A stretch of 64,000 nucleotides of DNA from the NCBI GenBank assembly GCA_964635715.1, contig CAZWNZ010000001.1, forward strand, positions 74,358-138,357, in the 5' to 3' direction. The notes beneath the pieces are model-generated. The model ran no database searches and had not been told where the DNA came from. It saw nothing but the letters and a program-made list of their open reading frames with translations. Position numbers and translations under genes: made by a program. Below, piece after piece: positions 21,641 through 61,949 of the stretch. Each line of letters starts with the position of its first letter. Position 1 is the stretch's first letter. This DNA comes from an uncultured Gammaproteobacteria bacterium (GTDB lineage: Bacteria; Patescibacteriota; Microgenomatia; UBA8517).

Positions 21641-21684
21641 TAGTGAACGAGTGTAGCAAATGAATGTGTTAAAATACAAGCATT

Positions 21685-21756
21685 GGCCACGTGGTGAAGT
21701 GGAAACACGGGAGTCTGCAAAACTTCTATGCACCAGTTCGATTCTGGTCGTGGCCT
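21685..21756 (+). tRNA. tRNA-Cys (anticodon GCA)
   Basis: Cloverleaf folded by eye: acceptor GGCCACG/CGTGGCC, anticodon stem GGAGT/ACTTC with loop CTGCAAA, T-arm ACCAG-TTCGATT-CTGGT, discriminator T, no encoded CCA. Confidence 0.75.
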
Positions 21757-21846
21757 CTCGTAAACTCGAGTCCACTTCTTCGTCGATGCCGGACACAGCC
21801 CTGGAAACTTGACTTTTAGGCTTTTCATGCTGTAGAATTGCGACTT

Positions 21847-30292: not shown

Positions 30293-30320
30293 ACTCAAAT
30301 ATCAAATCTCAAAACTCAAA
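30293..30320. repeat. Heptamer tandem array (AACTCAA/ATATCAA/ATCTCAA units) between the TsaCE stop and the canonical tsaD start
   Basis: aactcaaatatcaaatctcaaaactcaa. Confidence 0.5.
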
Positions 30321-30327
30321 GCTGACA

Positions 30328-31368
30328 ATGTTGGCGATAGATACCAGCTGCGACGAAACTTCCGCTGCTGTAACTGAAGGTACAGCAATTCTTTCAAATG
30401 TTATTTGGTCACAAGCTTCTGCACACGCAAAATTTGGCGGAGTTATGCCGTCCCTTGCTAAAAGAATGCATGAAGAAAGAATTAATTTCGTTGTTGAAAA
30501 GGCCTTAAAAAAAGCATTCCCCAAATCCCCATCTACCATCAACCATCTACTATCTACCAAAATTGATGCCATTGCCGTCACTGTCGGGCCCGGCCTTTCC
30601 ATAGCTTTAGGCGTTGGCATTAATAAAGCCAGGGAAATCGCCGAAAAATATAATAAAAAGCTTATTGCAGTAAATCATCTGGAGGCCCACTTATTCTCCC
30701 CATTCGCGAATTCTAAATTCGAAATTCTAAATTCTAAATTCCCAATGCTTGGCTTGGTAATTTCAGGCGGCAATACAATACTAGTTAAGATTAACAAAGT
30801 TGGGTCCTACAATATTCTTGCACAAACCACCGATGATGCTTTAGGGGAAGCTCTTGATAAAGCTGCTAGAATGCTCGGACTTGGCTATCCGGGAGGTGCA
30901 ATTTTGGAAAAGATGGCTAAGCTTGGAGATTCTAAAAAATATAACCTTCCTGTTCCTATTGTCGGTCAGGAAAAAAGAATGATTTTTACCTACTCCGGTA
31001 TTAAAACCTCTTTCTCGCGACTTGTTGAATCTGAAAAACCATTAACGAAAGGGGAAGTTGAAAATTTAGCAGCATCATTTCAAAATGTTGCCTTTAAACA
31101 TATCGAGCGCGTGCTACAGTATTACTTAATTCACAATTCTCTATTCAAAATTCAATATTTATTGGTCGGTGGCGGCGTTTCTGCCAATGTCGAAATTCGA
31201 AAAAGGTTGAGAAATCTATGTAAAAAATATTCAATAAATGTAGTATTTCCGACAAACAAAAAACTATATGGAGATAATGCAGCAATGATTGGAATAGCTG
31301 CTTATTTAAATCAAAATTTTGTAAAACTGGAGGAAATTGACCGGAAGCCTAACTTAAAATTAGCCTGA
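30328..31368 (+). CDS. tsaD: tRNA N6-adenosine threonylcarbamoyltransferase TsaD (Kae1/Gcp family)
   Basis: MLAIDTSCDETSAAV canonical N-terminus; the ORF could instead start at 30283 (ATGA overlap with TsaCE); carries the heptamer-encoded insert ANSKFEILNSKFP. Confidence 0.88.
   Translation: MLAIDTSCDETSAAVTEGTAILSNVIWSQASAHAKFGGVMPSLAKRMHEERINFVVEKALKKAFPKSPSTINHLLSTKIDAIAVTVGPGLSIALGVGINKAREIAEKYNKKLIAVNHLEAHLFSPFANSKFEILNSKFPMLGLVISGGNTILVKINKVGSYNILAQTTDDALGEALDKAARMLGLGYPGGAILEKMAKLGDSKKYNLPVPIVGQEKRMIFTYSGIKTSFSRLVESEKPLTKGEVENLAASFQNVAFKHIERVLQYYLIHNSLFKIQYLLVGGGVSANVEIRKRLRNLCKKYSINVVFPTNKKLYGDNAAMIGIAAYLNQNFVKLEEIDRKPNLKLA
30709..30743. repeat. Heptamer tandem array (AATTCTA/AATTCGA, 5 units) in-frame inside tsaD
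   Basis: aattctaaattcgaaattctaaattctaaattccc. Confidence 0.65.
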
Positions 31369-38154: not shown

Positions 38155-38577
38155 TCAAACGTGCCGATCCAATTCCTCGTTGACTAATCCATCTGCGATT
38201 TTATTTTTCTCACGCGGGACGTTTTTAAAAAAAATTTTCATTTTACTTCTTGCCATTAGCCGTCTAATTTCCAAATTCAAAATTATCAATTCATTTTTCT
38301 TTACTTTATAAATGCCATTTAACTGTCTAACCACCAACTCTGAATCAAGAATAAATTGAATACTGTTGTTGGCAAATTTATTTTCATTTTCAAGCAACCA
38401 TTCAAGGGCCAAAATAACAGCATTATACTCTGCCACATTATTTGTTGTCGTATTTAAAAATTTAGAATTTTTAAATATAACCCTGTCGTCAAAAACAACA
38501 GCAAAACCGCAAGCAGCCGGTCCGGGGTTTCCACGGGAGCCACCATCTGTAAATATCAAAATCGGTTCATTTTGCAT
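38155..38577 (-). CDS. rnhA: Ribonuclease HI
   Basis: IFTDGGSRGNPGPAACGFAV...AEYNAVILALE...ELI...DSELVVRQL...REKNKIADGL carries the RNase H catalytic-site pattern. Confidence 0.85.
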   Translation of the reverse strand: MQNEPILIFTDGGSRGNPGPAACGFAVVFDDRVIFKNSKFLNTTTNNVAEYNAVILALEWLLENENKFANNSIQFILDSELVVRQLNGIYKVKKNELIILNLEIRRLMARSKMKIFFKNVPREKNKIADGLVNEELDRHV

Positions 38578-42013: not shown

Positions 42014-42123
42014 GTGGATAACTCATTAAAAGTACATAGTACAAAGTACCTAGTACTTAGATTCCTAACTTCTGTCCTTGCCCTAATTTTTAGCTTCGTA
42101 CTAAGTACTGTGTACTAGGCACT
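42014..42123. promoter_or_regulatory. dnaA upstream control region: perfect DnaA box plus GTAC-rich imperfect inverted repeat
   Basis: TTATCCACA on the minus strand at 42014..42022; arms AGTACATAGTACAAAGTACCTAGTACTTAG (42031..42060) and GTACTAAGTACTGTGTACTAGGCACT (42098..42123) are mutually reverse-complementary at CCTAGTAC and AGTACTTAG. Confidence 0.5.
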
Positions 42124-42130
42124 ATTTTAT

Positions 42131-43492
42131 ATGAATAATGAACAAATTTGGAAAGATTCTTTAGAAATAATTAAAGTAACTGTTTCGCCGGCAATTTTTT
42201 CCACATGGTTTTCTCAAACACATCTTATATCTTTGAATGATTTAGATGAAAGGGTGATTGTGGAAGTGGGGTGCCCAACCTCTTTCGCAAAAAATACTAT
42301 TGAAGCAAGATATTTTGGACTAATTCAAGACTCATTGTCAAAAGTGGTTGGCAAAAAATGTGATTTGTCTTTTATCGTAAAATCAAAACCAAAAGTTGAT
42401 AAAGCTCCAATTGACGACACGTCCCCTCTTTTCTCAACTGAAAAAGATGAAAAAACTACTTTAGAAATACTTCAAAGGTCACGAATTAGACCCAGTTTTA
42501 CCTTTGAGAATTTTGCCGTTTCAGGAAGTAATCAAATGGCCCACGCAGCCGCGGAGGCTGTATCGAGAGATTTGGGATCCGCTTATAACCCTCTTTTTAT
42601 TTGGGGTGGGGTAGGGGTCGGAAAAACACACCTCATGGTCTCTGTAGGAAATTATGTTTTACGAAATGATTCTGGAAAAAAAGTTCTTTTTTGTACGGGA
42701 GAAGATTTTACAAACGACATTGTAGAGGGGATTAGAAACAAGACAACGCAGGCATTTAGAAATAAATATAGAAAACTTGATCTGTTACTAATTGACGATA
42801 TTCAGTTTATTGCAGGTAAAGACACTGTGCAGGAAGAATTTTTCCATACATTTAATGCCGTCACTTCTGTCGGTGGTCAAATAATCCTTACTTCTGATCG
42901 ACCACCTTCTGAGATATCCAGACTCGAAGAAAGACTTAGAAGCCGCTTTGAAGCAGGATTAATTGTGGACGTAGCACCACCGGATTTTGAGTTAAGATGT
43001 GCAATAACTCAAATTAAATCCAGAGAGAAAGGAATTGATCTTTCATCAGAGCAGGTTCAAATGATTGCAGCCAATTCCGAGGCGGCTAGAAAAATCGAAG
43101 GGGTTCTAACAAGAATATTGACAGAGATTCATCTCAAAAACATTGTTGTCACCAATGAACTCATTGAATCTATGTTTGCTAAAAGCCTTGATACCTCCGG
43201 TAAAATCACCAAAAGCTCACCGGAACAAGTAGTTGAGGCGGTTTCTAAGTATTTTCAGCTTGGCAAGAGACTTCTTTTGGGAGATAGCCGGGCAAGACCA
43301 ATAGCCCGACCCAGACAAATTTTAATGTATCTTTTGAGAACACATCTCGGCCTTCCCCTCGAAGAGATTGGAAGAATAGTCGGAGGAAGGGACCATACAA
43401 CAGTGATGCATGCTGTGGAAAAGATTACACAACTAGCCACAAACGATGTGCAAATCCGTGAGGATATTTTGAAGATAAAAAGTGTAATTTGA
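42131..43492 (+). CDS. dnaA: Chromosomal replication initiator DnaA
   Basis: AAA+ Walker A GGVGVGKTHL, Walker B LLLIDDIQF, C-terminal DNA-binding helix ...DHTTVMHAVEKI. Confidence 0.95.
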   Translation: MNNEQIWKDSLEIIKVTVSPAIFSTWFSQTHLISLNDLDERVIVEVGCPTSFAKNTIEARYFGLIQDSLSKVVGKKCDLSFIVKSKPKVDKAPIDDTSPLFSTEKDEKTTLEILQRSRIRPSFTFENFAVSGSNQMAHAAAEAVSRDLGSAYNPLFIWGGVGVGKTHLMVSVGNYVLRNDSGKKVLFCTGEDFTNDIVEGIRNKTTQAFRNKYRKLDLLLIDDIQFIAGKDTVQEEFFHTFNAVTSVGGQIILTSDRPPSEISRLEERLRSRFEAGLIVDVAPPDFELRCAITQIKSREKGIDLSSEQVQMIAANSEAARKIEGVLTRILTEIHLKNIVVTNELIESMFAKSLDTSGKITKSSPEQVVEAVSKYFQLGKRLLLGDSRARPIARPRQILMYLLRTHLGLPLEEIGRIVGGRDHTTVMHAVEKITQLATNDVQIREDILKIKSVI

Positions 43493-43740
43493 GGATATTT
43501 TTCTAAAATTCTAACTTATCAACAGCAGTATTAAACTTATCCACAAATTTATTCACAAATTACTACGCATAATATCAACACAAAAACATCCCGAAAAACG
43601 AATTCGAAAGTGGTTTCTTTTCAACTTATCAACCCTTTCTACTACTAGAACTACTAGTATATATATGATAAATACAAGAAAACCGAAAACAAATAAATAT
43701 TGATTTTTGAGTGTTTTCCTTTTACCCTTAACCTACTGTT
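43493..43740. promoter_or_regulatory. Putative oriC segment in the dnaA-dnaN spacer (DnaA boxes plus AT-rich unwinding stretch)
   Basis: TTATCCACA perfect at 43537..43545; one-mismatch boxes TTATCAACA 43516..43524, TTATTCACA 43549..43557, TTATCAACC 43626..43634; AT-rich tatatatatgataaata near 43660. Confidence 0.6.
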
Positions 43741-44862
43741 ATGAGAGTACAAGTACTACAAGAGAACTTAGAAAAAGCTATTGGCATAACAACAAGATTT
43801 GCCAGTGCCAAAGCACAACTTCCCATTCTTGGTAATGTACTCATATCAACCCGCAAAAGTAAAATTTATATTTCTTCAACAAATTTGGAAATTTCGGCTT
43901 CTGTTAAGATTGGTGCAAAAATTGAAGAAGATGGTGAAATTAGTATTCCTGCAAAAATTATTTCGGAATTAGTACCAAATTTACCCAAGGAAACGATTGG
44001 TCTACAATCGGAAAAGGAGCAGCTGAAGATTTCCACAAACGGCTTTACTTCAACTATTCTGGGAATGGATTCAACAGACTTTCCCAAAATTCCGAATGCT
44101 TTAAATGAGAAAAACACAATCAGTTTTTCTAAGAAGCTACTTTCTGAAAGTTTAGGTAAAGTCGTATTTTCAACTTCTACAGATGAAACACGTCCCATTT
44201 TGACAGGAGTTCTTTTTATTCTTAAAGATAATTCTTTGTCTTTAGTAGCAACTGATGGCTTTCGTCTTTCTAGAAAAAATGTTTTACTAAAGGATTTTAA
44301 AGGAGAGGAAAAATCTGTTGTAATTCCGAAAGGAATCCTGGGGGAGATAATTCGAGGTGTTTTTGAAACAGACGATATTTTGTTTGATCTTGAAGAGTCT
44401 GAAAAACAAGTTCTCTTTGAATTGGAGGATACGGTACTTACATCCAGACTTCTGGAGGGGGAGTATCCGGATTTTGAAAAGATTATTCCAAAAGAATCAA
44501 ACATAAAAGTGTTTTTAGATAAGGAGGAATTTTTAAGGGCAGTAAAATTGGCTTCGATATTTGCCAAAGAGGCTGCAAATGTTGTGAAACTGAAAATTTT
44601 GAAGGATTCCATAAAAGTTTCTGCAGAAAGCGGACAGGCGGGGAGCCAGGAAACAAAAGTCGATGCGAAAGTTGAATCCGGAATTTCGAATTTTGAATCT
44701 GGATTTGAGATTGCTTTTAACTTCCGGTATTTGGAGGATTTTATTCATTCGGTTACAGGCGAAGAATTATCTATGGAGTTTGTAAGTTCTACTTCTGCCG
44801 GGGTGTTTAAGGACACAAGCGATGAAAATTATCTTCATCTAATTATGCCGGTTAAGATGTAA
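43741..44862 (+). CDS. dnaN: DNA polymerase III beta sliding clamp
   Basis: Three-domain clamp pattern (MRVQVLQENLEKAIGITTRFAS...) directly downstream of dnaA. Confidence 0.9.
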   Translation: MRVQVLQENLEKAIGITTRFASAKAQLPILGNVLISTRKSKIYISSTNLEISASVKIGAKIEEDGEISIPAKIISELVPNLPKETIGLQSEKEQLKISTNGFTSTILGMDSTDFPKIPNALNEKNTISFSKKLLSESLGKVVFSTSTDETRPILTGVLFILKDNSLSLVATDGFRLSRKNVLLKDFKGEEKSVVIPKGILGEIIRGVFETDDILFDLEESEKQVLFELEDTVLTSRLLEGEYPDFEKIIPKESNIKVFLDKEEFLRAVKLASIFAKEAANVVKLKILKDSIKVSAESGQAGSQETKVDAKVESGISNFESGFEIAFNFRYLEDFIHSVTGEELSMEFVSSTSAGVFKDTSDENYLHLIMPVKM

Positions 44863-48025: not shown

Positions 48026-49894
48026 TTATTTGTCAGCGTATGGATTGGTGTTTACCTTCACAACTTCCTGTGGTTTAGTTGTAATTAATCTGTTTTCTTC
48101 TTCCGAAGCAACAATTCTAATTGGGGCATGGTGTGGCCCTGCAAAGAAAATGCCTTCTCCAACATTGGCTGCAAGAAGAAGCCTTTTTTCTCCTTGGGAC
48201 AAATAGAAGACCTCGCCAATCTTATCAATTGCGGCAGGGGATTGCTTTAAGAGAAGCTGCATGGCGCTATTTGTGACAATAGCCTTTCCAATGTCCTGTC
48301 CGAGGAAGTCCTCGACGTCCTGAGTGATTGTAGTGAGTCCTAGATAGTATTTACGGGCCCTTTTAACAACACTCCATAAAAATTGGGCAGTATCGGGATA
48401 TCTCATCATGTGCCAAGCTTCATCTACAATCAAAATTCTTCTCTTGAGATTCTTTTTAACCCTAGTCCAAATATAGTCGAGAATAATAAACATGGCGATT
48501 GGGCGAATGGCGTCCTGCATATCTTTAACAGAAAACACAGTGAAGGGATTGATAATGTTAATGTTAGTTTGTTGATCGAAAATTCCTACAAAGCTTCCTC
48601 TAACAAATTTTTCAAGTCTGGCGGCAAGATCCAGAGCTTCAGGTGATTCCATGCCGATCAGGGTTTTGTAAAGATCTTCCATGAGAGGGGGTTCTTTGCC
48701 TTGGGTCTCGGGATCCATAGTAATTCCTTTGGCCCGATAAGTCATTATTAAGGCACGGTCAAGCAATGCCTCCTGAATTGGGGTGATTGCCCCCATAATC
48801 ACTTTCATTAGGGAATGAAGAGAAAGTATTTTTAGTCCAAGCTGATTTTCACCCTCTTCACGGATTTGGGACAGATCAAAAGGATTAATTTTTGCCTGGG
48901 AATTGTAGGAGAATGATATATATTCACCACCCACCGCTTCGGCTATAGATTTATATTCGCTTTCAGGATCAATAACTATTGTTTCGACCCCTGTCATGAG
49001 CGACCTTAGCGCCTCAAGTTTAACAAAATAGGATTTACCGGCTCCCGATGTTGCAAAAATTGTCATGTTGGCATTTTGCAGGCTAAACCTATCAAAAATA
49101 ATAAAAGATTCGTTTTGAGAATTCATTCCATAGAGAACACCTCTGTCACTTGAAAGTTCGGTTGAGGTTAGGGGAAAAGTTGTGGCAACCGATGTGGTAT
49201 CCATATTTCTGGTGATGTTAAGGCGGTCGATGCCAAACGGGGCAGTTGCCAAAAACCCCTCTGACATATTTAGCATGGCATGTTTGCTGACAATCATAAG
49301 GGATCCAAGTTGAGATTCGACCTGTTTAGTTATTTGATTCAGTTCCTCAACGGAATTTGCAGGGATTGTAATGTAAAAACCAAATTCGTAAAATCTTTCA
49401 ATTCCTTTAACTAATTGTTCCTGCAGCGCCTGAGCATCCTCTAATTTTGCCTGTGTCACCGGATCAACCAGTTTTCCCCGTTCGATATCTGTGGTCATTT
49501 CAGCTTCCATTTCGGCGATTTTTCGCCTTAGATCATCAAGAACGCTCTTTCCGTCGACTGGATAGATATAAAAAGAAATATCCAAAGAGGTATCAATATT
49601 GACTACGGGTTCGAGCCACCCCGGGGCGACAAATCTTGGATATCCACCGACAAAAATTGTCCTGAAATAGACATCGTTGACTTTGATATAGTCAAAATCA
49701 ACCTCAACCGATTGGGGTGAAATTACATCAAGTAGGTTCATTCCCTGATTCATAACCGAATAGGCGGCTGAAACAACCGGAGGCTTAACCTCCGTATTAG
49801 AATCTTGAATCTTGAATCTTGAATCTTGAGACGTGGAGCCTAAATCCTGATCTGCAGGTTTTATATTTGGTGTTTTTGTAATATTGTTTTGCAT
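48026..49894 (-). CDS. VirB4/TrbE/CagE-family T4SS ATPase, C-terminal ~620 aa (middle plus ATPase domains)
   Basis: Walker A IFATSGAGKSYFVKLE, Walker B ILIVDEAWHMM (the hhhhDEAW typical of VirB4), mid-domain KVNDVYFRTIFVGGYPRFVAPGWL. Confidence 0.8.
   Translation of the reverse strand: MQNNITKTPNIKPADQDLGSTSQDSRFKIQDSNTEVKPPVVSAAYSVMNQGMNLLDVISPQSVEVDFDYIKVNDVYFRTIFVGGYPRFVAPGWLEPVVNIDTSLDISFYIYPVDGKSVLDDLRRKIAEMEAEMTTDIERGKLVDPVTQAKLEDAQALQEQLVKGIERFYEFGFYITIPANSVEELNQITKQVESQLGSLMIVSKHAMLNMSEGFLATAPFGIDRLNITRNMDTTSVATTFPLTSTELSSDRGVLYGMNSQNESFIIFDRFSLQNANMTIFATSGAGKSYFVKLEALRSLMTGVETIVIDPESEYKSIAEAVGGEYISFSYNSQAKINPFDLSQIREEGENQLGLKILSLHSLMKVIMGAITPIQEALLDRALIMTYRAKGITMDPETQGKEPPLMEDLYKTLIGMESPEALDLAARLEKFVRGSFVGIFDQQTNINIINPFTVFSVKDMQDAIRPIAMFIILDYIWTRVKKNLKRRILIVDEAWHMMRYPDTAQFLWSVVKRARKYYLGLTTITQDVEDFLGQDIGKAIVTNSAMQLLLKQSPAAIDKIGEVFYLSQGEKRLLLAANVGEGIFFAGPHHAPIRIVASEEENRLITTKPQEVVKVNTNPYADK
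49800..49827. repeat. Four perfect GAATCTT heptamers at the 5' end of the VirB4 ATPase ORF
   Basis: gaatcttgaatcttgaatcttgaatctt; encodes QDSRFKIQDS at codons ~23-32. Confidence 0.7.
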
Positions 49895-49898
49895 ATTT

Positions 49899-49930
49899 TC
49901 TAGATTCTAGCTACTAACTACTAGATTCTT
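49899..49930. repeat. CTAG-rich heptamer array (TCTAGAT TCTAGCT ACTAACT ACTAGAT) in the 19-nt gap separating the two VirB4 ORFs
   Basis: Provides TAG stops on the coding (minus) strand between 49914..50648 and 48026..49894. Confidence 0.6.
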
Positions 49931-50648
49931 GTTTGTCCAATATAACTTCCGGTTCTTTTTTAACAGCCGGCTTCTCGGGATTGTAAATGGAATAGTAAAG
50001 ATTGATAAGCTCAGGTGTGGTAAGTTGTTTGAATTTCAGTCCCAATCTCCCTGCCTGGCGGATCAAGTGGTCGCGTCTTGGATAAAGGGTGATTTTTGCT
50101 TTCTTAATAACGTACGATTTCGGAAATGGCAGGGGTCCTCCTCCTTTGGTAATCGCGGCTACAGATTTGGCAATACCAAGTTCAAGGGGGGATAAATAAA
50201 GGATAACAAAAAATCTTTTACCCAAAACATTTTTCTTTTTAACGGATTCACTGATAAAGTTCCGGTAGTTTTGCATCAAGTTGGAGAGTAGCGGTTGGGT
50301 CATTTTTTTTGCCTGTTCATCGAGAAAATTCAGATAGGATGAAATATCTTTTTTCTGTGTCAGAACTACAATCTGTGTAGAAAAAGTCAGAGAGTTTATC
50401 ATGGCTGCATAGGCTGCAATTACCGCCTCTTGTTCTTTTTCTGAAAGGAGACCAAAGTTTAAAGAAGTAGATTCCATAATGAGTGAGGCGCCGCCATCTT
50501 TATAGATAACAATGTCGTTTGTTATATCCGCAACCGGCACGAAATCCTGTGTTGTGGCCGTAAGCGGTTTGTCGGGAACACTCAGGAAAGGAATCTTAAG
50601 TTTAGAATTTTGAATCTTGAATTTTGAATCTTGAATTTTACTATTCAT
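49914..50648 (-). CDS. VirB4 N-terminal-domain-like protein (separate ORF; apparent split of the VirB4 gene)
   Basis: DITNDIVIYKDGGASLIMESTSLNFGLLSEKEQEAVIAAYAAMINSL resembles the N-terminal region of monoderm-type VirB4 ATPases (tentative, by eye); 244 + 622 aa equals the usual VirB4 length; 5' end carries the heptamer-encoded MNSKIQDSKFKIQNSKLKIP. Confidence 0.5.
   Translation of the reverse strand: MNSKIQDSKFKIQNSKLKIPFLSVPDKPLTATTQDFVPVADITNDIVIYKDGGASLIMESTSLNFGLLSEKEQEAVIAAYAAMINSLTFSTQIVVLTQKKDISSYLNFLDEQAKKMTQPLLSNLMQNYRNFISESVKKKNVLGKRFFVILYLSPLELGIAKSVAAITKGGGPLPFPKSYVIKKAKITLYPRRDHLIRQAGRLGLKFKQLTTPELINLYYSIYNPEKPAVKKEPEVILDKQESSS
50591..50639. repeat. Seven-unit heptamer array (GAATCTT/GAATTTT alternating) at the 5' end of the VirB4-N ORF
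   Basis: gaatcttaagtttagaattttgaatcttgaattttgaatcttgaatttt. Confidence 0.65.
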
Positions 50649-51016
50649 TTTATTAGTTTTGATTTTTTAATCAGCCCATTTAATATTTTCAAAGTAATTA
50701 CGGATTGATCATATAAATGATCGAACTCCTTTTGTCCAATAAATTTGACATCTCGGGATATGATTAGTTGGTTTTGCAATTCGGTAATAGACCCTGCTGA
50801 GATTCTAAAGAACTGCAATTTTTCTTTATAGGAATATCTACTAAATCCTTCAGCAATATTGCTTGTTATTGAAACTGCACAACGCCTCATTTGATTTGTA
50901 ATTCCAAACATCTCAGATTTCGGAAAATTACCAGTCACTTCGTAGATGCCAATAACAAGTTGATGCCCTTCTTTCCAGGCATTTAAATCAGTAAAATTAA
51001 TAATTTTATTTTCCAT
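50645..51016 (-). CDS. Four-helix-bundle protein (TIGR02436 / 23S rRNA-IVS protein / Avd family)
   Basis: ITNQMRRCAVSITSNIAEGFSRYSYKEKLQFFRISAGSITELQNQLIISRD is a textbook family signature; ATGA-coupled to VirB4-N and abutting the stop of the upstream gene. Confidence 0.8.
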   Translation of the reverse strand: MENKIINFTDLNAWKEGHQLVIGIYEVTGNFPKSEMFGITNQMRRCAVSITSNIAEGFSRYSYKEKLQFFRISAGSITELQNQLIISRDVKFIGQKEFDHLYDQSVITLKILNGLIKKSKLIK

Positions 51017-52108
51017 TTAATTTAATGGTGTTCCACTAGATTCGAGATTCAAGATACTAGATTCTACTTGTAGTCTTTTTCCTGTAACAAGTATTGGTGG
51101 AATTATCTCTCCCTTAGCCTCAAAATTGACGGGCATAAATTGATAACCGTCCTTTTCGCTGATAATGCTGTATTTCCCGTTTTCGAGAGGTGTGACTGCC
51201 ATAAAATGGCCAAGCTTGTTGCTTCTGAGAGCCCTTATTGGTCTTCCATATTCATCTCGTATTTCGATTATTGCGCTTTCTATTATTCTTCTGGCCTCAT
51301 CGACAACTTGTCCGACAATAACATTTGGACTGGTTGGGGGATTGGGCGGTGTGGCATCGATCGAGAATATCGCCTCTTTTGTAGACACTATTTCCTCACC
51401 GACGACTGTCGGATTGACTTGCTGAGTTTGGAATTGTGCTGTTTGGTCAATGATTTTTGGTTTTTCCTCCACAACAAGATGGGAGGTCTGTGGTGAAACA
51501 ATTTTAACAGGGTTGCTTACCGGAATTTCAAGTTTTTTAGGTTCAGTAGAAGCTACAGGTTGGTTGGTTGGTTGGGCTACTGTCGTAGCCAGTGGTGTTT
51601 TAATACCCGCAAGTATGCCGGCTAGTTTGGAAAAAAAACCTTGTTCAGCAACCTCGAGTTTGGCAAGTGGTCCTTGCGGAGACCTGGAGCTGTCAAGATA
51701 GTTTTTAACAGCCGCATCCTGATTTTGTGTTTGAGAATTTGGGATGTTTGAGGACGGACTTTCGTCCTGAAAAAATTTCCGGATACCTGTTGTTTTTTTC
51801 CAGTGGAAAGTAGTAGGAGAATAAATTGCTTTAAAGAAAGCCAGGATCCACTGTTCCAGTGGGCGTTCCTCAAGAGGAACAAAAGCCATAGCAGCTCCAA
51901 GAATGACAAATATAATTATAAAAGGCCATTTAATAATTCCCGGAAGGGGGGTTGCGTAAAATATCAAACCAACTAATACGCCCCCCGCAAGTTCAAAGAA
52001 TTGCTTAAGAGTCATATCTCCAACCAATTTGAATTGGTAAGAACTTACGTTTTGTGGTATCGGATGTTGTTCCATGCTCTTGAGCAGGGCGAAAGAGCAC
52101 AAAAGCAA
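51017..52108 (-). CDS. VirB3/PrgI-like two-TM membrane protein with a long Q/P/T-rich extension and C-terminal beta domain (tentative)
   Basis: TM hairpin FFELAGGVLVGLIFYATPLPGIIKWPFIIIFVILGAAMAFVPLEERP in the position VirB3 usually occupies upstream of VirB4. Confidence 0.4.
   Translation of the reverse strand: MLLCSFALLKSMEQHPIPQNVSSYQFKLVGDMTLKQFFELAGGVLVGLIFYATPLPGIIKWPFIIIFVILGAAMAFVPLEERPLEQWILAFFKAIYSPTTFHWKKTTGIRKFFQDESPSSNIPNSQTQNQDAAVKNYLDSSRSPQGPLAKLEVAEQGFFSKLAGILAGIKTPLATTVAQPTNQPVASTEPKKLEIPVSNPVKIVSPQTSHLVVEEKPKIIDQTAQFQTQQVNPTVVGEEIVSTKEAIFSIDATPPNPPTSPNVIVGQVVDEARRIIESAIIEIRDEYGRPIRALRSNKLGHFMAVTPLENGKYSIISEKDGYQFMPVNFEAKGEIIPPILVTGKRLQVESSILNLESSGTPLN
51038..51065. repeat. 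Heptamer array (AGATTCG AGATTCA AGATACT AGATTCT), opposite orientation to the array at 50591..50639
   Basis: agattcgagattcaagatactagattct; lies in the 3' end of the upstream CDS. Confidence 0.55.
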
Positions 52109-52193
52109 AGCTTTTTGAGTCTTACCCTATACTTTTAAGACTATCCCGTGAAGGGGGTAATTCAAGGGGAAACCTTTTTCACAAGGACTAAAC

Positions 52194-52784
52194 CTAGTTG
52201 GCACTACAACAACAGCAACCCACATCACTATCATGATCGCTGCTACTATAGCTAGAATTGCTGTCATACACTTTTCTAGAAGGATCTATGTATGCCTTGG
52301 CCAACACCTCTTCAAGTTTATTAGCATTTTGCCAGTCTTGTTTTTGTAGACAAACCAATGCCTGTGCGTTAATGGATATGGATTCGTTGTCGGGAGCAAT
52401 TTGAATCTCTATAGATGAATAGTCATAACTACCCGTATGGTTTGAATCAACCTTTCCGTCGGCCCCAATTTTAAAAGATGTTCCCCAAACAAGTGCGATT
52501 CTACCTGTAGATGCAACATATTTTAGTTGATGGCTTTTAACATTACCATCAAGCATCTCTTTATCTATTCTTTCAAGGCAGTGAAGGATATTACTACTTC
52601 CGACAATTTCATTATTTTTAGAAATTACAAATTGAAGTCTTCTTTCCTCAGCTTCCTTTTCAAGCCTCTTCTTTTCTTCGTTAGCCAACCTTTCTTTTTC
52701 GAGGACCTCCTGACGGGCTTTTTCCTGTCTGGCAGCCTCCTCAGCTCTTTCCTGTTGAATACGCTTTATTATTTCAATTGGCAT
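52194..52784 (-). CDS. Hypothetical protein with coiled-coil N-terminus and Ser/Cys-rich C-terminal tail; candidate YcaO/SagB substrate
   Basis: Ends ...YDSNSSYSSSDHDSDVGCCCCSAN; lies immediately downstream of the SagB-type dehydrogenase in the same operon. Confidence 0.4.
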   Translation of the reverse strand: MPIEIIKRIQQERAEEAARQEKARQEVLEKERLANEEKKRLEKEAEERRLQFVISKNNEIVGSSNILHCLERIDKEMLDGNVKSHQLKYVASTGRIALVWGTSFKIGADGKVDSNHTGSYDYSSIEIQIAPDNESISINAQALVCLQKQDWQNANKLEEVLAKAYIDPSRKVYDSNSSYSSSDHDSDVGCCCCSAN

Positions 52785-52818: not shown

Positions 52819-53451
52819 TCAAGCTCCTATAGCCAAATAGTATATTGGATATTCCTCACGGGGATTTATGTCGAGGAGTTTAATTAGCGGCTTTTCGTTT
52901 AACATTCCAATTGCACAACATCCGATTCCAAGACTCGTTGACAGTAAATATATATTTTGCGCAACATGCCCAGCTTCAATATAAGGAAAATACATCCCTC
53001 TTTCTTTATATTTATCTGTGGTTCTATGAAATACAGAAGTAAGAATTATCAAAACAGAAGCTTTTTTGAACCATAACTGTTTTGTCATCCAGATCTGATC
53101 AATATCCTTGGTTGCCATTTTTCTGTGTAGAATTTCTAACCCATGACTAATTGGATTGTAGTGATATAAACCTTGCCTAATATTTCCGCCTTTCATGACA
53201 AGTATATAAGCCTCGAGCGGATATTTTGCGCCAGCAGATGGATAAACACGAAAGGGGTTTTTTTCTTCATAAGGATTTTGTCTAATTGCCGCTAGACTGT
53301 GGTATAGAATATCAGACAAAGTCTTTTTGCCCACCGTTTTTCCTGTAAAGTTCCTAGATGATGTTCTACTTTTTATGATTTTTCTTAATTCTCCGGCCGT
53401 ATTTGTTCGGGGGAGTGGTATTTTTTCTAACCTGGAATAAGTTTTGTGCAT
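52819..53451 (-). CDS. SagB-type (nitroreductase-fold, FMN) dehydrogenase of azoline/azole RiPP pathways
   Basis: RTSSRNF...YPSAGAKYPLEAYILV...GLYHYNP...KYKERGMYFPYIEAGHVAQNIYLLSTSLGIGCCAIG matches the TIGR03605 SagB-type pattern. Confidence 0.7.
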   Translation of the reverse strand: MHKTYSRLEKIPLPRTNTAGELRKIIKSRTSSRNFTGKTVGKKTLSDILYHSLAAIRQNPYEEKNPFRVYPSAGAKYPLEAYILVMKGGNIRQGLYHYNPISHGLEILHRKMATKDIDQIWMTKQLWFKKASVLIILTSVFHRTTDKYKERGMYFPYIEAGHVAQNIYLLSTSLGIGCCAIGMLNEKPLIKLLDINPREEYPIYYLAIGA

Positions 53452-53453
53452 AC

Positions 53454-54812
53454 TTAAAAAGGATGAATTTTTGATAGCTCATTAACATTCATATTTAGAT
53501 TTACATCAATATTCCTATTTTTTGGAACTTCAGTGAGTCTTTTTATGCCAAAATATGGATATCTTTCGTCGTGCCATAGAGGTACCATTTCTGGGACAAG
53601 AACCTTGACAACTTTCAAACACACTTTTTCAATTTCAGGAGTCGTCATGTCGATATAATATGCGGTGCACCCAATGTTTTTAAGCTTTGAAAGAGTGTAC
53701 TTAAGATATTCTTCATCTGTCTTGAACATTGTTGTTTTAGTCAACGAAACTTGCTTGGAGCTCTTAATAAAATTTTCGACCTGCCCTATCATATGCGGAG
53801 CTGACCACTCACGATGTTTCTGCCAATTAAACCATTCAAACGATCCTTTTGGGGGCGGAGGGTTGTTCACATAAAAATATTTTTTTCTATTTGTTACATA
53901 TCTTCTGAGCGCCTCAATCGCCGATATCTTTAACACATTAGCTGTGTCTAGGCCGGCCCCCAGGCCACAACACACCGCAGGGCCCACGCCCGTTCTGTCT
54001 ACAAGAAGGCAAACAACTGAAAATATTCCAGTGTCTAGCGTGGTATCAAAAAAATAAATCTCAAAATTATATCTGGCGAATTTTTCTACAAGTTCTTTTA
54101 ATTCTTTATTTGACTTGTCTAGCGAAATCAAGCGTTTTGGTATTTCTGGAAGAAACGAAATTACATACCCATCCCTCTCAATAATTTCACAAAGCCCCCT
54201 ATAAACAGCAAAATCAATGTTTGGACCGCAGGCGGCCCCCGTACTTATAGGCATTCGTATAACTGGTTCATTGTGTTGTTTGTGGGAATAATTTGCGTAT
54301 GCTAAAGAGGCAGGTATTAGTTTTTTCTCATGACTTATTAGATTATGCCCCATCAGCCAATTAATCTGCGAGTTTCTGGATATATTAAACTTTTTGTACT
54401 TTTTTGTGGACAGCTGTTTGGGTGTAAAAGGAACAAAAACTGTTGGATCAATGGCATTATTTTTTAACTGTATATATGATCCATGTACAAACTTTTCCGG
54501 AGTTTCGTTCAAGATACAATAATGTTCTATAGCTTCGGTTATTGAACGTTCGATGGATGTTCTCTCGTTGTCGCTTCCACCATAACCATAGGCAGTGTTA
54601 ACTTTGTTTCCTTTTGAATATCTTTCACAGGAATATATAAAAAACTGGGGAATGTCTGGCCATGTTTTACTTTGAGTTAGTTGTCCAAGTATTTTATGGG
54701 ATTGCAGGTCATTGTGGATTTTTTTAAAACGAGAAGACAATGGTAATTTTGAAAACGGAAATGTCCTTACTGCAGGGTCATGGGGCAGAGCGATTCGAGC
54801 ACCGTTTTTCAC
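53454..54812 (-). CDS. YcaO-domain protein (ATP-dependent cyclodehydratase family)
   Basis: GYGGSDNERTSIERSITEAIEHY (G-GxG-S-ERS-EA-ER motif) and PISTGAACGPNIDFAVYRGLCEIIERDG (PxSxGxAxG...E..ERD) are YcaO ATP-binding signatures. Confidence 0.8.
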   Translation of the reverse strand: MKNGARIALPHDPAVRTFPFSKLPLSSRFKKIHNDLQSHKILGQLTQSKTWPDIPQFFIYSCERYSKGNKVNTAYGYGGSDNERTSIERSITEAIEHYCILNETPEKFVHGSYIQLKNNAIDPTVFVPFTPKQLSTKKYKKFNISRNSQINWLMGHNLISHEKKLIPASLAYANYSHKQHNEPVIRMPISTGAACGPNIDFAVYRGLCEIIERDGYVISFLPEIPKRLISLDKSNKELKELVEKFARYNFEIYFFDTTLDTGIFSVVCLLVDRTGVGPAVCCGLGAGLDTANVLKISAIEALRRYVTNRKKYFYVNNPPPPKGSFEWFNWQKHREWSAPHMIGQVENFIKSSKQVSLTKTTMFKTDEEYLKYTLSKLKNIGCTAYYIDMTTPEIEKVCLKVVKVLVPEMVPLWHDERYPYFGIKRLTEVPKNRNIDVNLNMNVNELSKIHPF

Positions 54813-59537: not shown

Positions 59538-61949
59538 TTAATAACAGTCAGCGCTAAAGGGATACCCAGTAAAGTTGCAGCTTGTCATTGTGTTCCAATG
59601 GATATCCATAAGTTCCATATATTGTTCTGCTTTAGGTGGTAACTCTTTCTTGTCTATATTACAGTATCCGTAATAGTAAATAGAAAAGAACATTTCGGTG
59701 TCGCGCCCCTTGCCGAAACATGAAGCATACTGAGGAGCGGTTTTATAATATTCCATAAGTTCGAAAAACTCATTAATTTGTGCAGTAAAACCTCTGTACT
59801 TGGAGCTGTTTATCCCAAAGTCCTGATTGGAAATTTCATAATTACTTGCACCGCTCTCATTTACCCATAGGAGTAGTGTAAATGCAGGGTTTACGTTAGC
59901 TGCAATAGATTTTCTGACAACATCGTTATAGCATTCCAGAACATGATCACCCTCGCGTCCTTCCCAAGCGATTGCAAACTCATGCAAGTCTTCCTTTGAA
60001 ATTAATTTTGGTGCTAAAGAAGATACATCGGCAGCCGTTTGGTCGCAATCGATCCCTGTATTTGTTATATCTTCGATGATGTCATTTTCTGCAAAAGCAA
60101 TTTGTTCCCCATACCCCTTTGGTCTGAGAGCTGTTTGGATTCCCTTTAGGAAGTACTCCGAAACTCCTCCGACGTGGGGAATTTTAAGGTCGGTATTAGA
60201 CTCACTCATATCCGTGCCGGAGTATGTGATGTTGGAAGAACCTGCTATGTCAATTATTTTCCCGACGCCTCCCTCAGTGTTTGTTTTTGGAAAAATTCTC
60301 TTAAAAACTGACATGGATCCTGCCACAAGACGCGACCAGACATCATCCACAAGGGGAATGTTGGACTGAGTGGAAAGATTTATATAAACCTTTTTACTGC
60401 ATTTTTGCCTGACAATTTGAGGAATACACTCCTTGTCTATAAGCGAACCACAACGTTCGCCGACATAATGACCGTTATAGCACATGCAATCAAGAGGCTC
60501 GGTATCGCAAGGTTTGTCTATCAGAGAACCACAGCGTTCGCCGACATAATTTCCGTTAATGCACATACAGTCGAGAGGGTCATCTTCCGTGGTAGGTTCG
60601 TTAAATATGCAGGTAAAGCCGGCGGTATAAGAAAGGTCTCCTGTTAGTTGATTGGCAAAGAGGTCGTCTCCTGCATTTGAACGTACTTCCACGGTGCTGC
60701 ACGATGTATCTGAAATATTCGTAGGACTACTTACTTTCTCCTCTCCTTGCGGTATATAAGTATCCTGTAAAAGCGAACCTAACTCATCGGCTTCGACCAT
60801 GTGAGGCAGAAATAGAGTGGAAGGCAATTGGTTGGAAAAAGTGATGTTTTTAACCGTAACCCCGGTAGTATTTAGATTGGTTGATGAGGAAACGTTATCT
60901 ATTTTAATATTTCCCTCCACATCTTCTGTTGATGAGAGGGAAATATATGGAAAAAGTTCCGCATATTTGCTTTTAACAAGAGGATTTTTTACACAAATGA
61001 GTTGATTGATAACAGGTATTAGGGCACATGTGTCTCCCTGCCATTCTCTATATGCTTTAAGATATTCTTTTTCATTTTCAAATTGTTCATTCCAGGGGAG
61101 AGGAGGGGTTCTTTTGTTCCAAGCTACACCAACATATCGATTGATTTCTTCGGATGTAGCATTCGGTAAAAGATTTAGGATGGCTCTCTTTAAAATATTG
61201 GAAATACCTCTGGTGATACCAAGACCGCCACTTTCCCATTCTGTAAGGCGATATGTATTGGAAATGACACTATTTTCATCATGACACCCAACAGGATCTC
61301 CACTTAATGAAGTACAGACGACAACTTTATCGTGCTGCGTCTCCTTAGCTGATTCTATCATTTCAATTTGCTGAGCTTGTTGGATAGCTTGAGGCAGAAG
61401 TTTTTTTAGTGGCCCGGAATAATTTACAAAATTCTGATCAGTGTCATTGGCACTGCCATATTCAGTGCGGTTTGTGACACCGTTTAAGTACCAGCTGACA
61501 TATTCATTCATTTTTTGAGCGTCATCAAAACTCTCCTCGGAACTTTGCGAATTGATAACATCCTCAGTATTGCCCATAATAGGCAACTCAGCTCCGCTTA
61601 GGTTGATAGTCACGCTTTTGTTTACGTCTATATTGTATGTGCAGTAAATTTTGCCGTTTTTGGTCGTGCAGTCACCGGGAGTTCCGGGATAGTAAATATC
61701 AATGGTATTGGTAAGCGTTAAATCAGTTCCACAGTATGTTGCATAGTCTGAGACGCTGCTGGAACATTGTGTGTTTGCTTGATAGGGTCTAAGAGAGTGA
61801 AACTCTTCATCGTCGGCCAGTGTGCTATCGGTTGTTTCATCGCACTTTATATTTGTATTTGACGGAATCTGGGAGTGAACAGATGTTGGATCAAACAGGG
61901 ATAGAAAAAGAAACAAGGGAATTAGAAAGAGAACATGCAGTTTATTCAT
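59538..61949 (-). CDS. Large secreted Cys-rich protein with tandem EGF-like ~24-aa repeat; candidate surface adhesin or T4SS-associated surface factor
   Basis: Signal peptide MNKLHVLFLIPLFLFLSLFDPTSVHS; PLDCMCINGNYVGERCGSLIDKPC / PLDCMCYNGHYVGERCGSLIDKEC tandem. Confidence 0.5.
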   Translation of the reverse strand: MNKLHVLFLIPLFLFLSLFDPTSVHSQIPSNTNIKCDETTDSTLADDEEFHSLRPYQANTQCSSSVSDYATYCGTDLTLTNTIDIYYPGTPGDCTTKNGKIYCTYNIDVNKSVTINLSGAELPIMGNTEDVINSQSSEESFDDAQKMNEYVSWYLNGVTNRTEYGSANDTDQNFVNYSGPLKKLLPQAIQQAQQIEMIESAKETQHDKVVVCTSLSGDPVGCHDENSVISNTYRLTEWESGGLGITRGISNILKRAILNLLPNATSEEINRYVGVAWNKRTPPLPWNEQFENEKEYLKAYREWQGDTCALIPVINQLICVKNPLVKSKYAELFPYISLSSTEDVEGNIKIDNVSSSTNLNTTGVTVKNITFSNQLPSTLFLPHMVEADELGSLLQDTYIPQGEEKVSSPTNISDTSCSTVEVRSNAGDDLFANQLTGDLSYTAGFTCIFNEPTTEDDPLDCMCINGNYVGERCGSLIDKPCDTEPLDCMCYNGHYVGERCGSLIDKECIPQIVRQKCSKKVYINLSTQSNIPLVDDVWSRLVAGSMSVFKRIFPKTNTEGGVGKIIDIAGSSNITYSGTDMSESNTDLKIPHVGGVSEYFLKGIQTALRPKGYGEQIAFAENDIIEDITNTGIDCDQTAADVSSLAPKLISKEDLHEFAIAWEGREGDHVLECYNDVVRKSIAANVNPAFTLLLWVNESGASNYEISNQDFGINSSKYRGFTAQINEFFELMEYYKTAPQYASCFGKGRDTEMFFSIYYYGYCNIDKKELPPKAEQYMELMDIHWNTMTSCNFTGYPFSADCY
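60405..60560. repeat. Tandem ~72-nt duplication inside the secreted-protein CDS (encodes the Cys-rich repeat)
   Basis: gaaccacaacgttcgccgacataatgaccgtt... vs gaaccacagcgttcgccgacataatttccgtt... Confidence 0.65.

Follow-up and report, generated by a model that had tools for sequence, protein, structure and literature searches.

A four-helix-bundle family gene cassette flanked by heptamer arrays

Examination of a T4SS operon from a Patescibacteria (Microgenomates/Woesebacteria-like) genome revealed a gene of the TIGR02436/PF05635 four-helix-bundle (4HB) family that is embedded between two oppositely oriented arrays of tandem heptamers, and we consider this element most likely to be a cassette of the type that is called an intervening sequence (IVS) when it sits in helix 45 of 23S rRNA. 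The operon lies within a 64-kb stretch of DNA (positions 74,358 to 138,357 of contig CAZWNZ010000001.1), which we refer to as the window. A first-pass annotation of the sequence had noted the gene, between VirB3-like and VirB4-N genes, and its inverted heptamer arrays, and had suggested that such arrays mark the insertion footprint of this gene family. That interpretation is largely supported, with the qualifications described below. The features of the element and its surroundings are listed in Table 1.

Table 1. Features of the cassette, its host operon, and other inverted heptamer pairs in the window (L003-L006 are loci of the closest relatives; L083, L085 and L087 are described in the text)
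Position	Strand	Feature	Supporting observations
50645-51016	-	Cassette ORF, 372 nt, 123 aa; starts directly after the TAA stop of the upstream gene and ends in an ATGA overlap (50645-50648) with the downstream gene	PF05635 23S_rRNA_IVP, E 1.7e-34, 118.6 bits (cutoff 33.8), residues 10-114 matching profile positions 2-106 of 106; TIGR02436, 114.7 bits (cutoff 24); PDB relative 2GSC (XCC0516), E 3.7e-16 over residues 11-93
51036-51066	-	Upstream arm (array A); about 4 degenerate heptamers, GAATCTN in the mRNA sense; doubles as the last ~15 codons (..ESSILNLESSG..) of the PrgI/VirB3-like gene and ends about 20 nt before the cassette ATG	No counterpart in L003-L006
50588-50640	-	Downstream arm (array B); units AAGATTC/AAAATTC in the mRNA sense, inverted relative to A; doubles as codons 3-17 (SKIQDSKFKIQNSKLK) of the TrsD-like gene	No counterpart in L003-L006
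51017-52108	-	PrgI/VirB3-like T4SS membrane protein; probable true start is the ATG at 52075 (MEQHPIPQ..); C-terminal tail replaced by array-derived sequence	PF12666 PrgI, E 1.2e-7; alignment with L003-L006
49914-50648	-	TrsD-like protein, a homologue of the VirB4 N-terminal domain; a separate gene in all relatives; 15-residue N-terminal extension encoded by array B	NF041427 TrsD, E 3.2e-8; PMC12102498
49898-49929	-	Array C; GAATCTAG-type units at the stop of the TrsD-like gene; upstream arm of an empty inverted pair	80% identical to A in direct orientation; absent from L003-L006
49797-49829	-	Array D; AAGATTC x 4.3, perfect, in codons 22-32 of VirB4; downstream arm of the empty pair	90% complementary to A over 29 nt; absent from L003-L006; the same junction holds a 4HB cassette in L087
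48026-49894	-	VirB4-type T4SS ATPase	NF045971, 375.7 bits; PF19044
42031-42124	+	Empty inverted pair just before the dnaA start at 42131; AGTACAN x 4 (42031-42060), 37-nt spacer, GTACTNN x 4 (42098-42124)	Unit type matches the arrays of a second 4HB cassette in L083 and L085; spacer homologous to the native dnaA 5'UTR of L003
9038-9136	-	Empty inverted pair; GAATCTC x 3, 44-nt spacer, AAGATTC/AAAATTC units; read through in frame inside a 978-aa UvrD-helicase/PD-(D/E)XK nuclease ORF, between the two domains

The arrays were confirmed with TRF, which reads the upstream array as 51038-51064 (period 7, 3.9 copies, 80% matches) and the downstream array both as 50605-50639 (period 14, 100% matches) and as 50605-50636 (period 7, 4.6 copies). 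AGATTC occurs on the + strand at 51038, 51045 and 51059, and on the - strand at 50591, 50612 and 50626. The two arrays are inverted repeats, with arms at 50603-50631 and 51038-51066 that are 83% complementary over 29 nt, and they pair with each other in both the MFE and the centroid RNA fold. The flank inverted-repeat score of this gene is 14, the highest among the called ORFs of the window that could be scored (the next is 9), and 1 of 3000 random-position pairs in the window reaches 14. By contrast, AGATTC itself is only mildly enriched across the window (66 observed against 46 expected). We offer two small refinements to the first-pass annotation: the upstream junction is a TAA stop abutting the ATG rather than an ATGA overlap, and the downstream gene is better called TrsD-like than VirB4-N. 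Additionally, the empty pair of the same unit type that lies 700 nt downstream (arrays C and D) had not been mentioned.

To ask whether the gene is an ancestral component of the operon, we compared orthologous Patescibacteria T4SS operons. No 4HB gene lies between PrgI and the TrsD-like gene in any of the approximately 75 operons from species-representative genomes that have this junction in view, and the closest relatives lack arrays A-D as well. Three related metagenome operons (L083, L084 and L085) carry the orthologous cassette at this junction with the same unit type, and comparison of the ORF with the copies in L083 and L085 indicates purifying selection (pN 0.15, pS 0.72-0.89). In a VirB4 NJ tree the window is sister to the cassette-less L003, and the clade that joins the window and L083 includes cassette-less loci in 199 of 200 bootstraps. 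The distribution is patchy, although insertion is not distinguished from ancestral presence with clean loss in sister lineages. Distant operons carry unrelated copies at this and the neighbouring junctions. Locus L087 has three cassettes, one at each junction, and five of the 80 VirB4-seeded genome loci (L015, L016, L017, L029 and L079), as well as L083 and L085, carry a copy upstream of PrgI.

We next asked whether the bracketing arrays are a general property of the gene family. Of 69 distinct relatives in Patescibacteria (CPR), 61 (88%) have period-7 GAAT-type arrays upstream and ATTC-type arrays downstream, against 3 of 220 control gene boundaries (1%). A motif-free inverted-repeat score gave a median of 14 against 7 for controls, and reached 12 or more in 76% of 80 cassettes against 0.8% of 889 control ORFs. 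Divergent copies in CPR, cyanobacteria, Bacteroidota and an Azospirillum 23S rRNA IVS have different units but the same inverted period-7 layout, and divergent CPR copies have units that are complementary between their own arms; the duplex energy of a cassette's own arms is -45 kcal/mol against -36 for cross-pairings (p 1e-9). Among 16 plasmid-borne homologues, 11 reach an inverted-repeat score of 12 or more and period 7 is the best period in 13; one of these is the bona fide Azospirillum 23S rRNA IVS. There are exceptions to the layout: Pseudanabaena has direct rather than inverted arrays, Gemmatirosa has period 8, and three cyanobacterial copies have only one arm. Because the loci were selected through similarity to this protein, the breadth of the claim rests on about 100 cassettes out of a family of at least 19,839 clusters at 50% identity.

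The arms also have a fixed polarity relative to the ORF. The upstream arm is purine-rich in 67 of 73 CPR cassettes (p 4e-14) and in 11 of 11 plasmid cassettes, and SD-like 4-mers number 33 in the upstream arm against 1 in its reverse complement. The cassettes are tightly wedged between host genes, with 53 of 61 co-oriented with both neighbours and median gaps of 47 nt upstream and 41 nt downstream. Unit number changes between close relatives, as loci L160 and L161 differ by 7 nt and L149 and L159 by 14 nt.

On this basis we infer that the cassette is a dispensable, self-propagating unit that was gained at this junction, or was ancestral and cleanly lost in sister lineages. The arms would form a stem of about 28 bp that, in RNA, would be an RNase III substrate, as demonstrated for the Coxiella IVS, and that would occlude or release the ORF's own ribosome-binding site. 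We further infer that the arms supply the stop, Shine-Dalgarno (SD) and start signals that let the ORF be spliced into a translationally coupled gene chain without breaking it, that arm complementarity is kept by a DNA-level process (slippage plus template switching or gene conversion between arms), by selection for pairing, or by both, and that movement probably uses host recombination between arrays, because no recombinase is encoded. Our best guess is that the 4HB protein binds the single-stranded heptamer arrays; the pentameric fold was determined for XCC0516, and arrays are typically 4-5 units long.

Some results do not favor parts of this model. The stems carry no sense-RNA signature: G:U mismatches number 40 against 58 A:C (p 0.085), and sense and antisense duplex energies do not differ (p 0.53), such that an RNA stem under selection is not demonstrated. 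The arms lie inside the coding regions of both neighbours, and RNase III cleavage would remove the PrgI stop codon and the TrsD start codon, so efficient cleavage would damage a T4SS that is essential in cultivated relatives. The 83% arm match is also weaker than in many other copies. We found no target-site duplication, recombinase or excision junction, and mobility is thus inferred from distribution only; no direct duplication is visible outside the arms when filled and empty junctions are aligned, though the PrgI tail is too variable for exact borders, and no transposase is present in the window ORFs scanned. Finally, the arrays are not exclusively a footprint of this gene, as about 16 other period-7 arrays in the window have no 4HB gene nearby, the dnaA pair brackets native sequence, and arrays bracket VirB4 in locus L088 and a 385-aa surface protein in locus L113.

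These last observations raise the possibility that the arrays are the primary mobile or self-generating element, with the 4HB gene merely their most frequent passenger or a trans-acting factor that creates or uses them. The empty pairs in the window, and an excess of arrays over 4HB genes of about 18 to 1, are consistent with this view. However, the ORF's start and stop codons are themselves part of the arms (ATGAAT...ATTCAT), arm polarity is fixed, and the spacer distribution of inverted pairs peaks at 350-400 nt, the size of the 4HB ORF (52 of 132 pairs, with 78 filled), which argues that ORF and arms are co-inherited as one module. We regard this alternative as unlikely, although it is partly compatible with our explanation. 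Similarly improbable is that the gene is an ordinary, vertically inherited accessory cistron flanked by coincidence by low-complexity slippage products or phase-variation tracts. Period-7 arrays are frequent in the window (about 20 TRF rows, all inside ORFs), tracts just after start codons (arrays B and D) could switch reading frame by gain or loss of one unit, L083 has an unrelated AACCAAT array at the VirB4 start, and unit number does vary between relatives (PMC4990558). Yet the association is specific to the gene family and to orientation, it holds with unrelated units across phyla, the gene and its arrays are absent together from the closest orthologous operons, and no array-length difference was seen between the window and two independent assemblies of the same strain group (L001 and L002).

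We consider it very unlikely that the stem is an operon-internal regulatory structure selected for host benefit (an RNase III site, transcription attenuator or translational coupler that tunes T4SS stoichiometry) with the 4HB protein as a T4SS-specific factor. T4SS junctions are occupied repeatedly, with 7 of 80 loci seeded with 4HB being T4SS operons, and the cassette preserves the chain of translational coupling; but 73 of 80 close relatives lie in unrelated contexts, cyanobacterial copies sit in cas, cmr, nrd and toxin-export operons and in rRNA, most T4SS operons work without the gene, and a pattern scan found no terminator-like site at the arms and no excess of promoter- or terminator-like sites over shuffles. 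There is equally little reason, in the 64 kb visible, to call the protein an accessory protein (Avd) of a diversity-generating retroelement (DGR), whether orphaned or serving a reverse transcriptase (RT) elsewhere, and the first-pass annotation was correct that no DGR is recognizable here. PF05635 and Avd belong to one structural superfamily (PMC10053308), but the hits to PF22296 bAvd (29.6 bits, cutoff 40) and to the Avd equivalog NF033474 (21.4 bits, cutoff 80) are below cutoff. No RT domain occurs in about 46 window ORFs scanned (RVT_3 at 38155-38577 is an RNase H domain), and there is no template/variable repeat (TR/VR)-like pair, the only direct repeat of 45 nt or more being an in-ORF tandem whose differences are not A-specific. 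None of about 100 related cassettes sits next to an RT-sized ORF, their neighbours being unrelated housekeeping genes, and there is no phage hit. Because only 64 kb of the genome is visible, a distant RT cannot be excluded.

IVS elements have been known since about 1990, and their origin and function remain unclear (PMC4990558); the 4HB family likewise has no assigned function despite its size. If the IVS module is a general cassette that also colonises protein-coding operons, then rRNA becomes one permissive landing site among many, and the protein and its arms become a defined pair. The link also offers a concrete, testable origin for the long-unexplained tandem heptamers of cyanobacteria and for the many heptamer tracts inside Patescibacteria genes. 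A more speculative reading, which we hold only tentatively, is that TIGR02436 genes and their inverted arms form one ancient class of mobile cassette that spans phyla and is manifested as the IVSs of 23S and 16S rRNA, the dispersed STRR-like arrays of cyanobacteria, and the in-ORF tracts of Patescibacteria, with the pentameric protein recognising single-stranded repeats at about one unit per subunit and driving hairpin formation and the copying or relocation of the module without any conventional recombinase. For annotation, we note that the arrays break assemblies (contig L001 ends inside array B), that they may create apparent gene fusions, such as long proteins, and that they may explain why the family is flagged as "CRISPR-linked" in large screens (PMC10910872). 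In this genome, an essential-type T4SS operon near oriC carries a passenger, inferred to be dispensable, whose translation is chained to that of its neighbours.

Comparison with known systems places these observations in context. Like integron gene cassettes and free-standing homing-endonuclease genes, a single small ORF is wedged between co-oriented host genes and borrows host transcription, and L087 has several cassettes in a row; there is, however, no integrase, attC or attI site and no nuclease domain, and the cassettes are dispersed at many loci rather than collected in one array. As in REPIN/RAYT systems and MITEs, short inverted-repeat pairs form hairpins, are dispersed through a genome, are often empty and are tolerated inside transcripts, but no transposase (among the window ORFs scanned) or RAYT-like gene is present, the arms are tandem heptamers of lineage-specific sequence rather than a conserved terminal repeat, and the associated gene lies inside the pair and occurs in many copies. 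Avd (bAvd, PDB 4DWL) is likewise small and basic and is reported to bind nucleic acid (PMC10053308), but no RT (among the window ORFs scanned) and no TR/VR pair is present here. The cyanobacterial STRR (short tandemly repeated repetitive) heptamers and the TAACTGA heptamer direct repeats of Beggiatoaceae, cyanobacteria and Bacteroidetes (PMC4679880) are also tandem heptamers, in 2-6 or more copies, mostly just upstream of start codons, and they occur in the same phyla that hold many TIGR02436 genes. The published repeats are described as direct arrays with no associated gene family and no systematic inverted partner, and no link to 4HB genes is mentioned in the papers that we could search, yet the cyanobacterial 4HB copies examined here are flanked by STRR-like arrays such as GTAGGGA, GGGTGTA, AGTCAGG and GGTGACA. 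With respect to the 23S rRNA IVSs that carry an S23p/23S_rRNA_IVP ORF, such as those of Coxiella burnetii, Leptospira and Brucella, the window copy differs in that it lies in a protein-coding operon rather than in helix 9, 25 or 45 of 23S rRNA (no rRNA is present in the window), and its arms are translated as parts of the neighbouring genes. Nevertheless, its anatomy is that published for the Coxiella IVS, in which a PF05635 ORF is enclosed by a 28-bp terminal stem (cut by RNase III in vitro in Coxiella) and is preceded by 3-4 GACAGAT heptamers before the ATG, whose number varies between strains (PMC4990558), and the IVS that we verified on Azospirillum lipoferum p2 likewise has heptamer arms (GACAGAG/GACGGAT), with an inverted-repeat score of 21.

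The T4SS gene string, of the Patescibacteria type, occupies the - strand of 45.3-52.8 kb, and includes an 895-aa protein with a C-terminal M23 domain. dnaA and dnaN lie 6 kb away. This fits the published observation that Patescibacteria place their T4SS near the replication origin, and that TrsD, PrgI/VirB3 and VirB4 are separate conserved genes (PMC12102498). The gene that the first-pass annotation described as the N-terminal part of VirB4 is TrsD-like, with weak similarity to VirB4 N-termini, and the "split VirB4" is therefore the normal arrangement; the closest relatives also have two ORFs, with an ATGA overlap. The coordinates of these genes, of the repeat arrays and of other features noted in the window and in the compared sequences are collected in the table.

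Features of the window and of compared loci (positions are those of the window unless another sequence is named)
Sequence	Position	Strand	Feature
Window	52194-52784	-	196-aa ORF
Window	51017-52108	-	PrgI/VirB3-like membrane protein (PF12666)
Window	50645-51016	-	123-aa four-helix-bundle (4HB) ORF, PF05635/TIGR02436
Window	49914-50648	-	244-aa TrsD-like protein (NF041427)
Window	48026-49894	-	622-aa VirB4 ATPase (NF045971, 375.7 bits)
Window	42131-44862		dnaA and dnaN (dnaA ATG at 42131)
Window	51036-51066		Array A, about four GAATCTN units in the mRNA sense
Window	50588-50640		Array B, AAGATTC/AAAATTC units
Window	49898-49929		Array C, same unit type; pairs with array D
Window	49797-49829		Array D, same unit type; pairs with array C
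Window	42031-42124		Inverted AGTACAN pair forming a hairpin in the dnaA 5'UTR, between the DnaA-box promoter region and the ATG; 37-nt loop
Window	9038-9136		Inverted heptamer pair translated in frame in the linker between the UvrD-helicase and PD-(D/E)XK nuclease domains of a 978-aa protein
Window	3712-3744, 5666-5697, 8839-8869, 10661-10693, 16636-16667, 30295-30320, 30529-30557, 30709-30741		Other period-7 arrays, inside ORFs and translated
Window	52819-54812		YcaO-domain gene and nitroreductase-family gene immediately upstream of the T4SS string, a RiPP/azoline-type pair
Window	60433-60581		68-nt direct repeat, 84% identical, spaced 81 nt apart, inside an 803-aa ORF with no Pfam match; an internal 27-residue protein repeat
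Window	21685-21757	+	tRNA-Cys, overlapping the 5' part of the mechanically called ORF 20795-21796
Window	20795-21796	-	Mechanically called ORF with PEGA and SH3 domains; its real start is probably further downstream
L001	contig end at window about 50611		End of a 19.6-kb Logan contig carrying the 4HB gene, inside array B
L002	680-859 (window about 50405-50585)		180-nt patch of the TrsD-like gene with about 36 mostly third-position differences from the window
L003	about 5245-5260		Palindrome at the cassette-less junction
L083	5095-5135		Heptamer array (AACCAAT x 4-5) at the very start of VirB4, no inverted partner
L087	1655-4369		Three different 4HB cassettes at consecutive gene junctions
L088	4383-6316		Inverted heptamer arrays bracketing VirB4
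L113	4821-6145		Inverted heptamer arrays bracketing a 385-aa predicted surface protein

The central observation of the first-pass annotation, that a four-helix-bundle gene in this operon is bracketed by oppositely oriented heptamer arrays, holds. The 123-aa protein is a clear member of its family, and its nearest solved relative is XCC0516 (PDB 2GSC, E 3.7e-16); a structure predicted without an alignment was of low confidence and was discarded. The gene starts directly after the TAA of the PrgI-like gene and ends in an ATGA overlap with the TrsD-like gene. Arrays A and B are reverse complements over 29 nt at 83%, and they pair in both the MFE and the centroid fold of the 521-nt transcript segment. 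The flank inverted-repeat score of the gene, 14, is the highest of the window's scored ORFs (the next is 9), and only 1 of 3000 random-position pairs reaches it. Both arrays are translated: A encodes the last ~15 residues of the PrgI-like protein, and B encodes residues 3-17 of the TrsD-like protein. Arrays C and D bracket only the TrsD stop and VirB4 start region. No difference in array length was seen between the window and two further assemblies, L001 and L002. L002, which comes from another sample, is identical to the window across the PrgI tail, the cassette and both arrays, and again beyond a divergent patch in the TrsD-like gene that looks like a recombination tract or an assembly mosaic. 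The end of contig L001 within array B indicates that the arrays break short-read assemblies.

To ask whether the gene is a fixed part of this operon, we scanned one genome per species with VirB4, which returned 80 loci, mostly Woesebacteria/Microgenomates. In all ~75 loci where the upstream genes are present, PrgI is followed directly by the TrsD-like gene, and the four closest loci (L003-L006, VirB4 79-87% identical) lack both the 4HB gene and arrays A-D. Three metagenome contigs (L083, L084 and L085) carry an orthologous cassette at the same junction, with 4HB proteins 77-78% identical and matching unit types, and pN of 0.15 against pS of 0.72-0.89 shows purifying selection. In a VirB4 NJ tree the window is sister to cassette-less L003, and the smallest clade containing the window and L083 includes cassette-less loci in 199 of 200 bootstraps. 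The cassette was therefore either gained more than once or transferred, or it was lost cleanly, and we infer that in either case it is dispensable and dynamic. The cassette-less junction of L003 contains the palindrome GGAATTCC, which is what a fusion of a GGAAT arm with an ATTCC arm would leave, although this may be chance.

We next examined whether the bracket is a property of the gene family. A metagenome scan with the protein gave 80 loci, 58-78% identical, in which upstream units such as ATGAATT, AGGAATT and AAGAATC run into the ATG, and downstream units such as AATTCAT and GATTCAT start inside the last codons. Of 69 distinct genes, 61 have at least 2 phased GAA[TG] units upstream and at least 2 phased [AC]TTC units downstream, whereas only 3 of 220 other ORF boundaries in the same loci do; the eight exceptions have arrays of other sequence. 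A strict comparison of consensus units failed for degenerate arrays (only 56 of 77 were scorable), and we replaced it with a motif-free inverted-repeat score. The median of this score is 14 against 7, and it reaches 12 or more in 76% of 80 cassettes against 0.8% of 889 control ORFs. An HMM built from these genes found divergent copies whose arms use quite different units, yet the two arms of each copy are complementary to each other, as in AGTACAN/NTGTACT, GCATAGC/GCTATGT, TTAAGCA/TGCTTAA and CAATGAC/GTCATTG. A cassette's own arms pair better than arms from different cassettes (-45 against -36 kcal/mol, p 1e-9). Stems are typically 28 bp at 86% Watson-Crick pairing, and arrays are about 30 nt, or 4-5 units. 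The cassettes are tightly wedged: 53 of 61 are co-oriented with both neighbours, with median separations of only 47 and 41 nt.

Although an inverted pair is symmetric, the ORF faces the same way relative to the base composition of the arms. The upstream arm is purine-rich in 67 of 73 CPR cassettes (p 4e-14) and in 11 of 11 plasmid cassettes, and it holds 33 SD-like 4-mers against 1 in its complement and 127 ATGs against 54. In the common unit class the start codon and the codons before the stop are themselves arm units (ATGAAT...ATTCAT). From this we infer that the arms provide the ribosome-binding site and start codon of the ORF and, because 7 is not a multiple of 3, stop codons in all frames. 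This would allow insertion into a translationally coupled chain, which runs PrgI-TAA|ATG-4HB-ATGA-TrsD in the window and PrgI-TAA-N4-ATG-TrsD in L003.

We rejected a diversity-generating retroelement, in agreement with the first-pass annotation: the Avd-specific models score below their cutoffs, no reverse-transcriptase domain was found among the approximately 46 ORFs scanned in the window, and no TR/VR pair is present there, the only long direct repeat being an in-ORF tandem whose differences are not adenine-specific. Neither a phage nor a defence link emerged, as there was no tblastn hit in 50,697 phage records and no PADLOC hit. Selection on an RNA stem was not supported. The stems do not carry more G:U than A:C mismatches (40 against 58), sense and antisense duplex energies do not differ (p 0.53), and RNase III cleavage in this copy would cut inside both neighbouring ORFs. 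The RNase III model therefore rests on analogy only, and processing here is doubtful or must be weak. Complementarity could be maintained at the DNA level. Slippage is documented by differences of 7 and 14 nt between close relatives, although these are individual examples, because too few clean pairs of near-identical cassettes were available for a systematic test of indels in multiples of 7; arm-to-arm template switching is our inference. We found no recombinase, target duplication or excision junction. A specific role in the T4SS appears improbable. T4SS junctions are recurrent sites, in that the distant Patescibacteria operon L087 has three unrelated cassettes, each with its own heptamer unit type (before PrgI, between PrgI and TrsD, and between TrsD and VirB4), and the operon loci L015, L016, L017, L079, L083 and L085 have one before PrgI, downstream of the operon promoter. 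Even so, 73 of 80 close relatives sit in other contexts, a promoter and terminator scan of 49700-52300 found nothing that exceeded the shuffled expectation, and the T4SS link probably reflects high expression or tolerance rather than function.

The arrays are not restricted to the gene. Period 7 is the only enriched short tandem period in the window, where a strict detector finds 7 arrays against 0-1 for periods 4-12, and none in 20 shuffles; about 16 period-7 arrays with no 4HB gene nearby lie in the window's ORFs, and most of the arrays so detected share an ATTC/GAAT core. Inverted pairs without a 4HB gene also occur, both in the window and, around other genes, in the loci L088 and L113. We considered that such empty pairs are deletion remnants of 4HB cassettes, and rejected this for the pair before dnaA, because its spacer is homologous to the native UTR of L003, which lacks the arms. 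The empty C/D pair lies at the junction that is filled in L087, and an unrelated heptamer array occupies the position of array D in L083.

Beyond Patescibacteria, a tblastn search against plasmids found 35 records, mostly cyanobacteria, plus Riemerella, Azospirillum and Gemmatirosa. Of the 16 that we examined, 11 have an inverted-repeat score of 12 or more, and period 7 is the best period in 13; Pseudanabaena, with direct arrays, and Gemmatirosa, with period 8, are exceptions. Nostoc edaphicum has GTAGGGA x 8 and TCCCTAC x 5 inside the nrd operon, and Riemerella has AAGGTTT and AAACCTT. Cyanobacterial plasmids (L166, L176 and L177) carry cassettes wedged inside CRISPR-Cas operons, between cas6 and cas4 in Pseudanabaena and Anabaena 90 (the latter with GGTGACA and TGTCACC) and between cmr2 and cmr3 in Picosynechococcus. 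This, or the flanking tandem arrays, may explain why "23S rRNA IVP" appears among CRISPR-linked families in PMC10910872. The family is large, with 19,839 representatives at 50% identity at E<=1e-3, many of them long proteins with the 4HB domain at one end (for example P0003, 887 aa; P0092, 811 aa; and P0108, 628 aa), which could be read-through or gene-calling fusions across translatable arrays.

The idea put forward in the first-pass annotation, that the arrays go with this gene family, is thus supported and extends across phyla, although the mechanism of spread and the activity of the protein remain inferences. In the incomplete literature that we could search, we found no paper that links this family to heptamer arrays beyond a study of the Coxiella IVS, or that generalises its result, and prior description elsewhere cannot be excluded. 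That study reports the same anatomy, namely an S23p ORF, a 28-bp terminal stem cut by RNase III in vitro, and 3-4 GACAGAT heptamers before the ATG, whose number differs between strains (PMC4990558). The Azospirillum copy lies inside a 23S rRNA gene (Rfam LSU, 2529 bits) and is a classical IVS, with GACAGAG/GACGGAT arms. The gene and arrays in the window are a genuine member of a cassette class that is the non-rRNA counterpart of the IVS.
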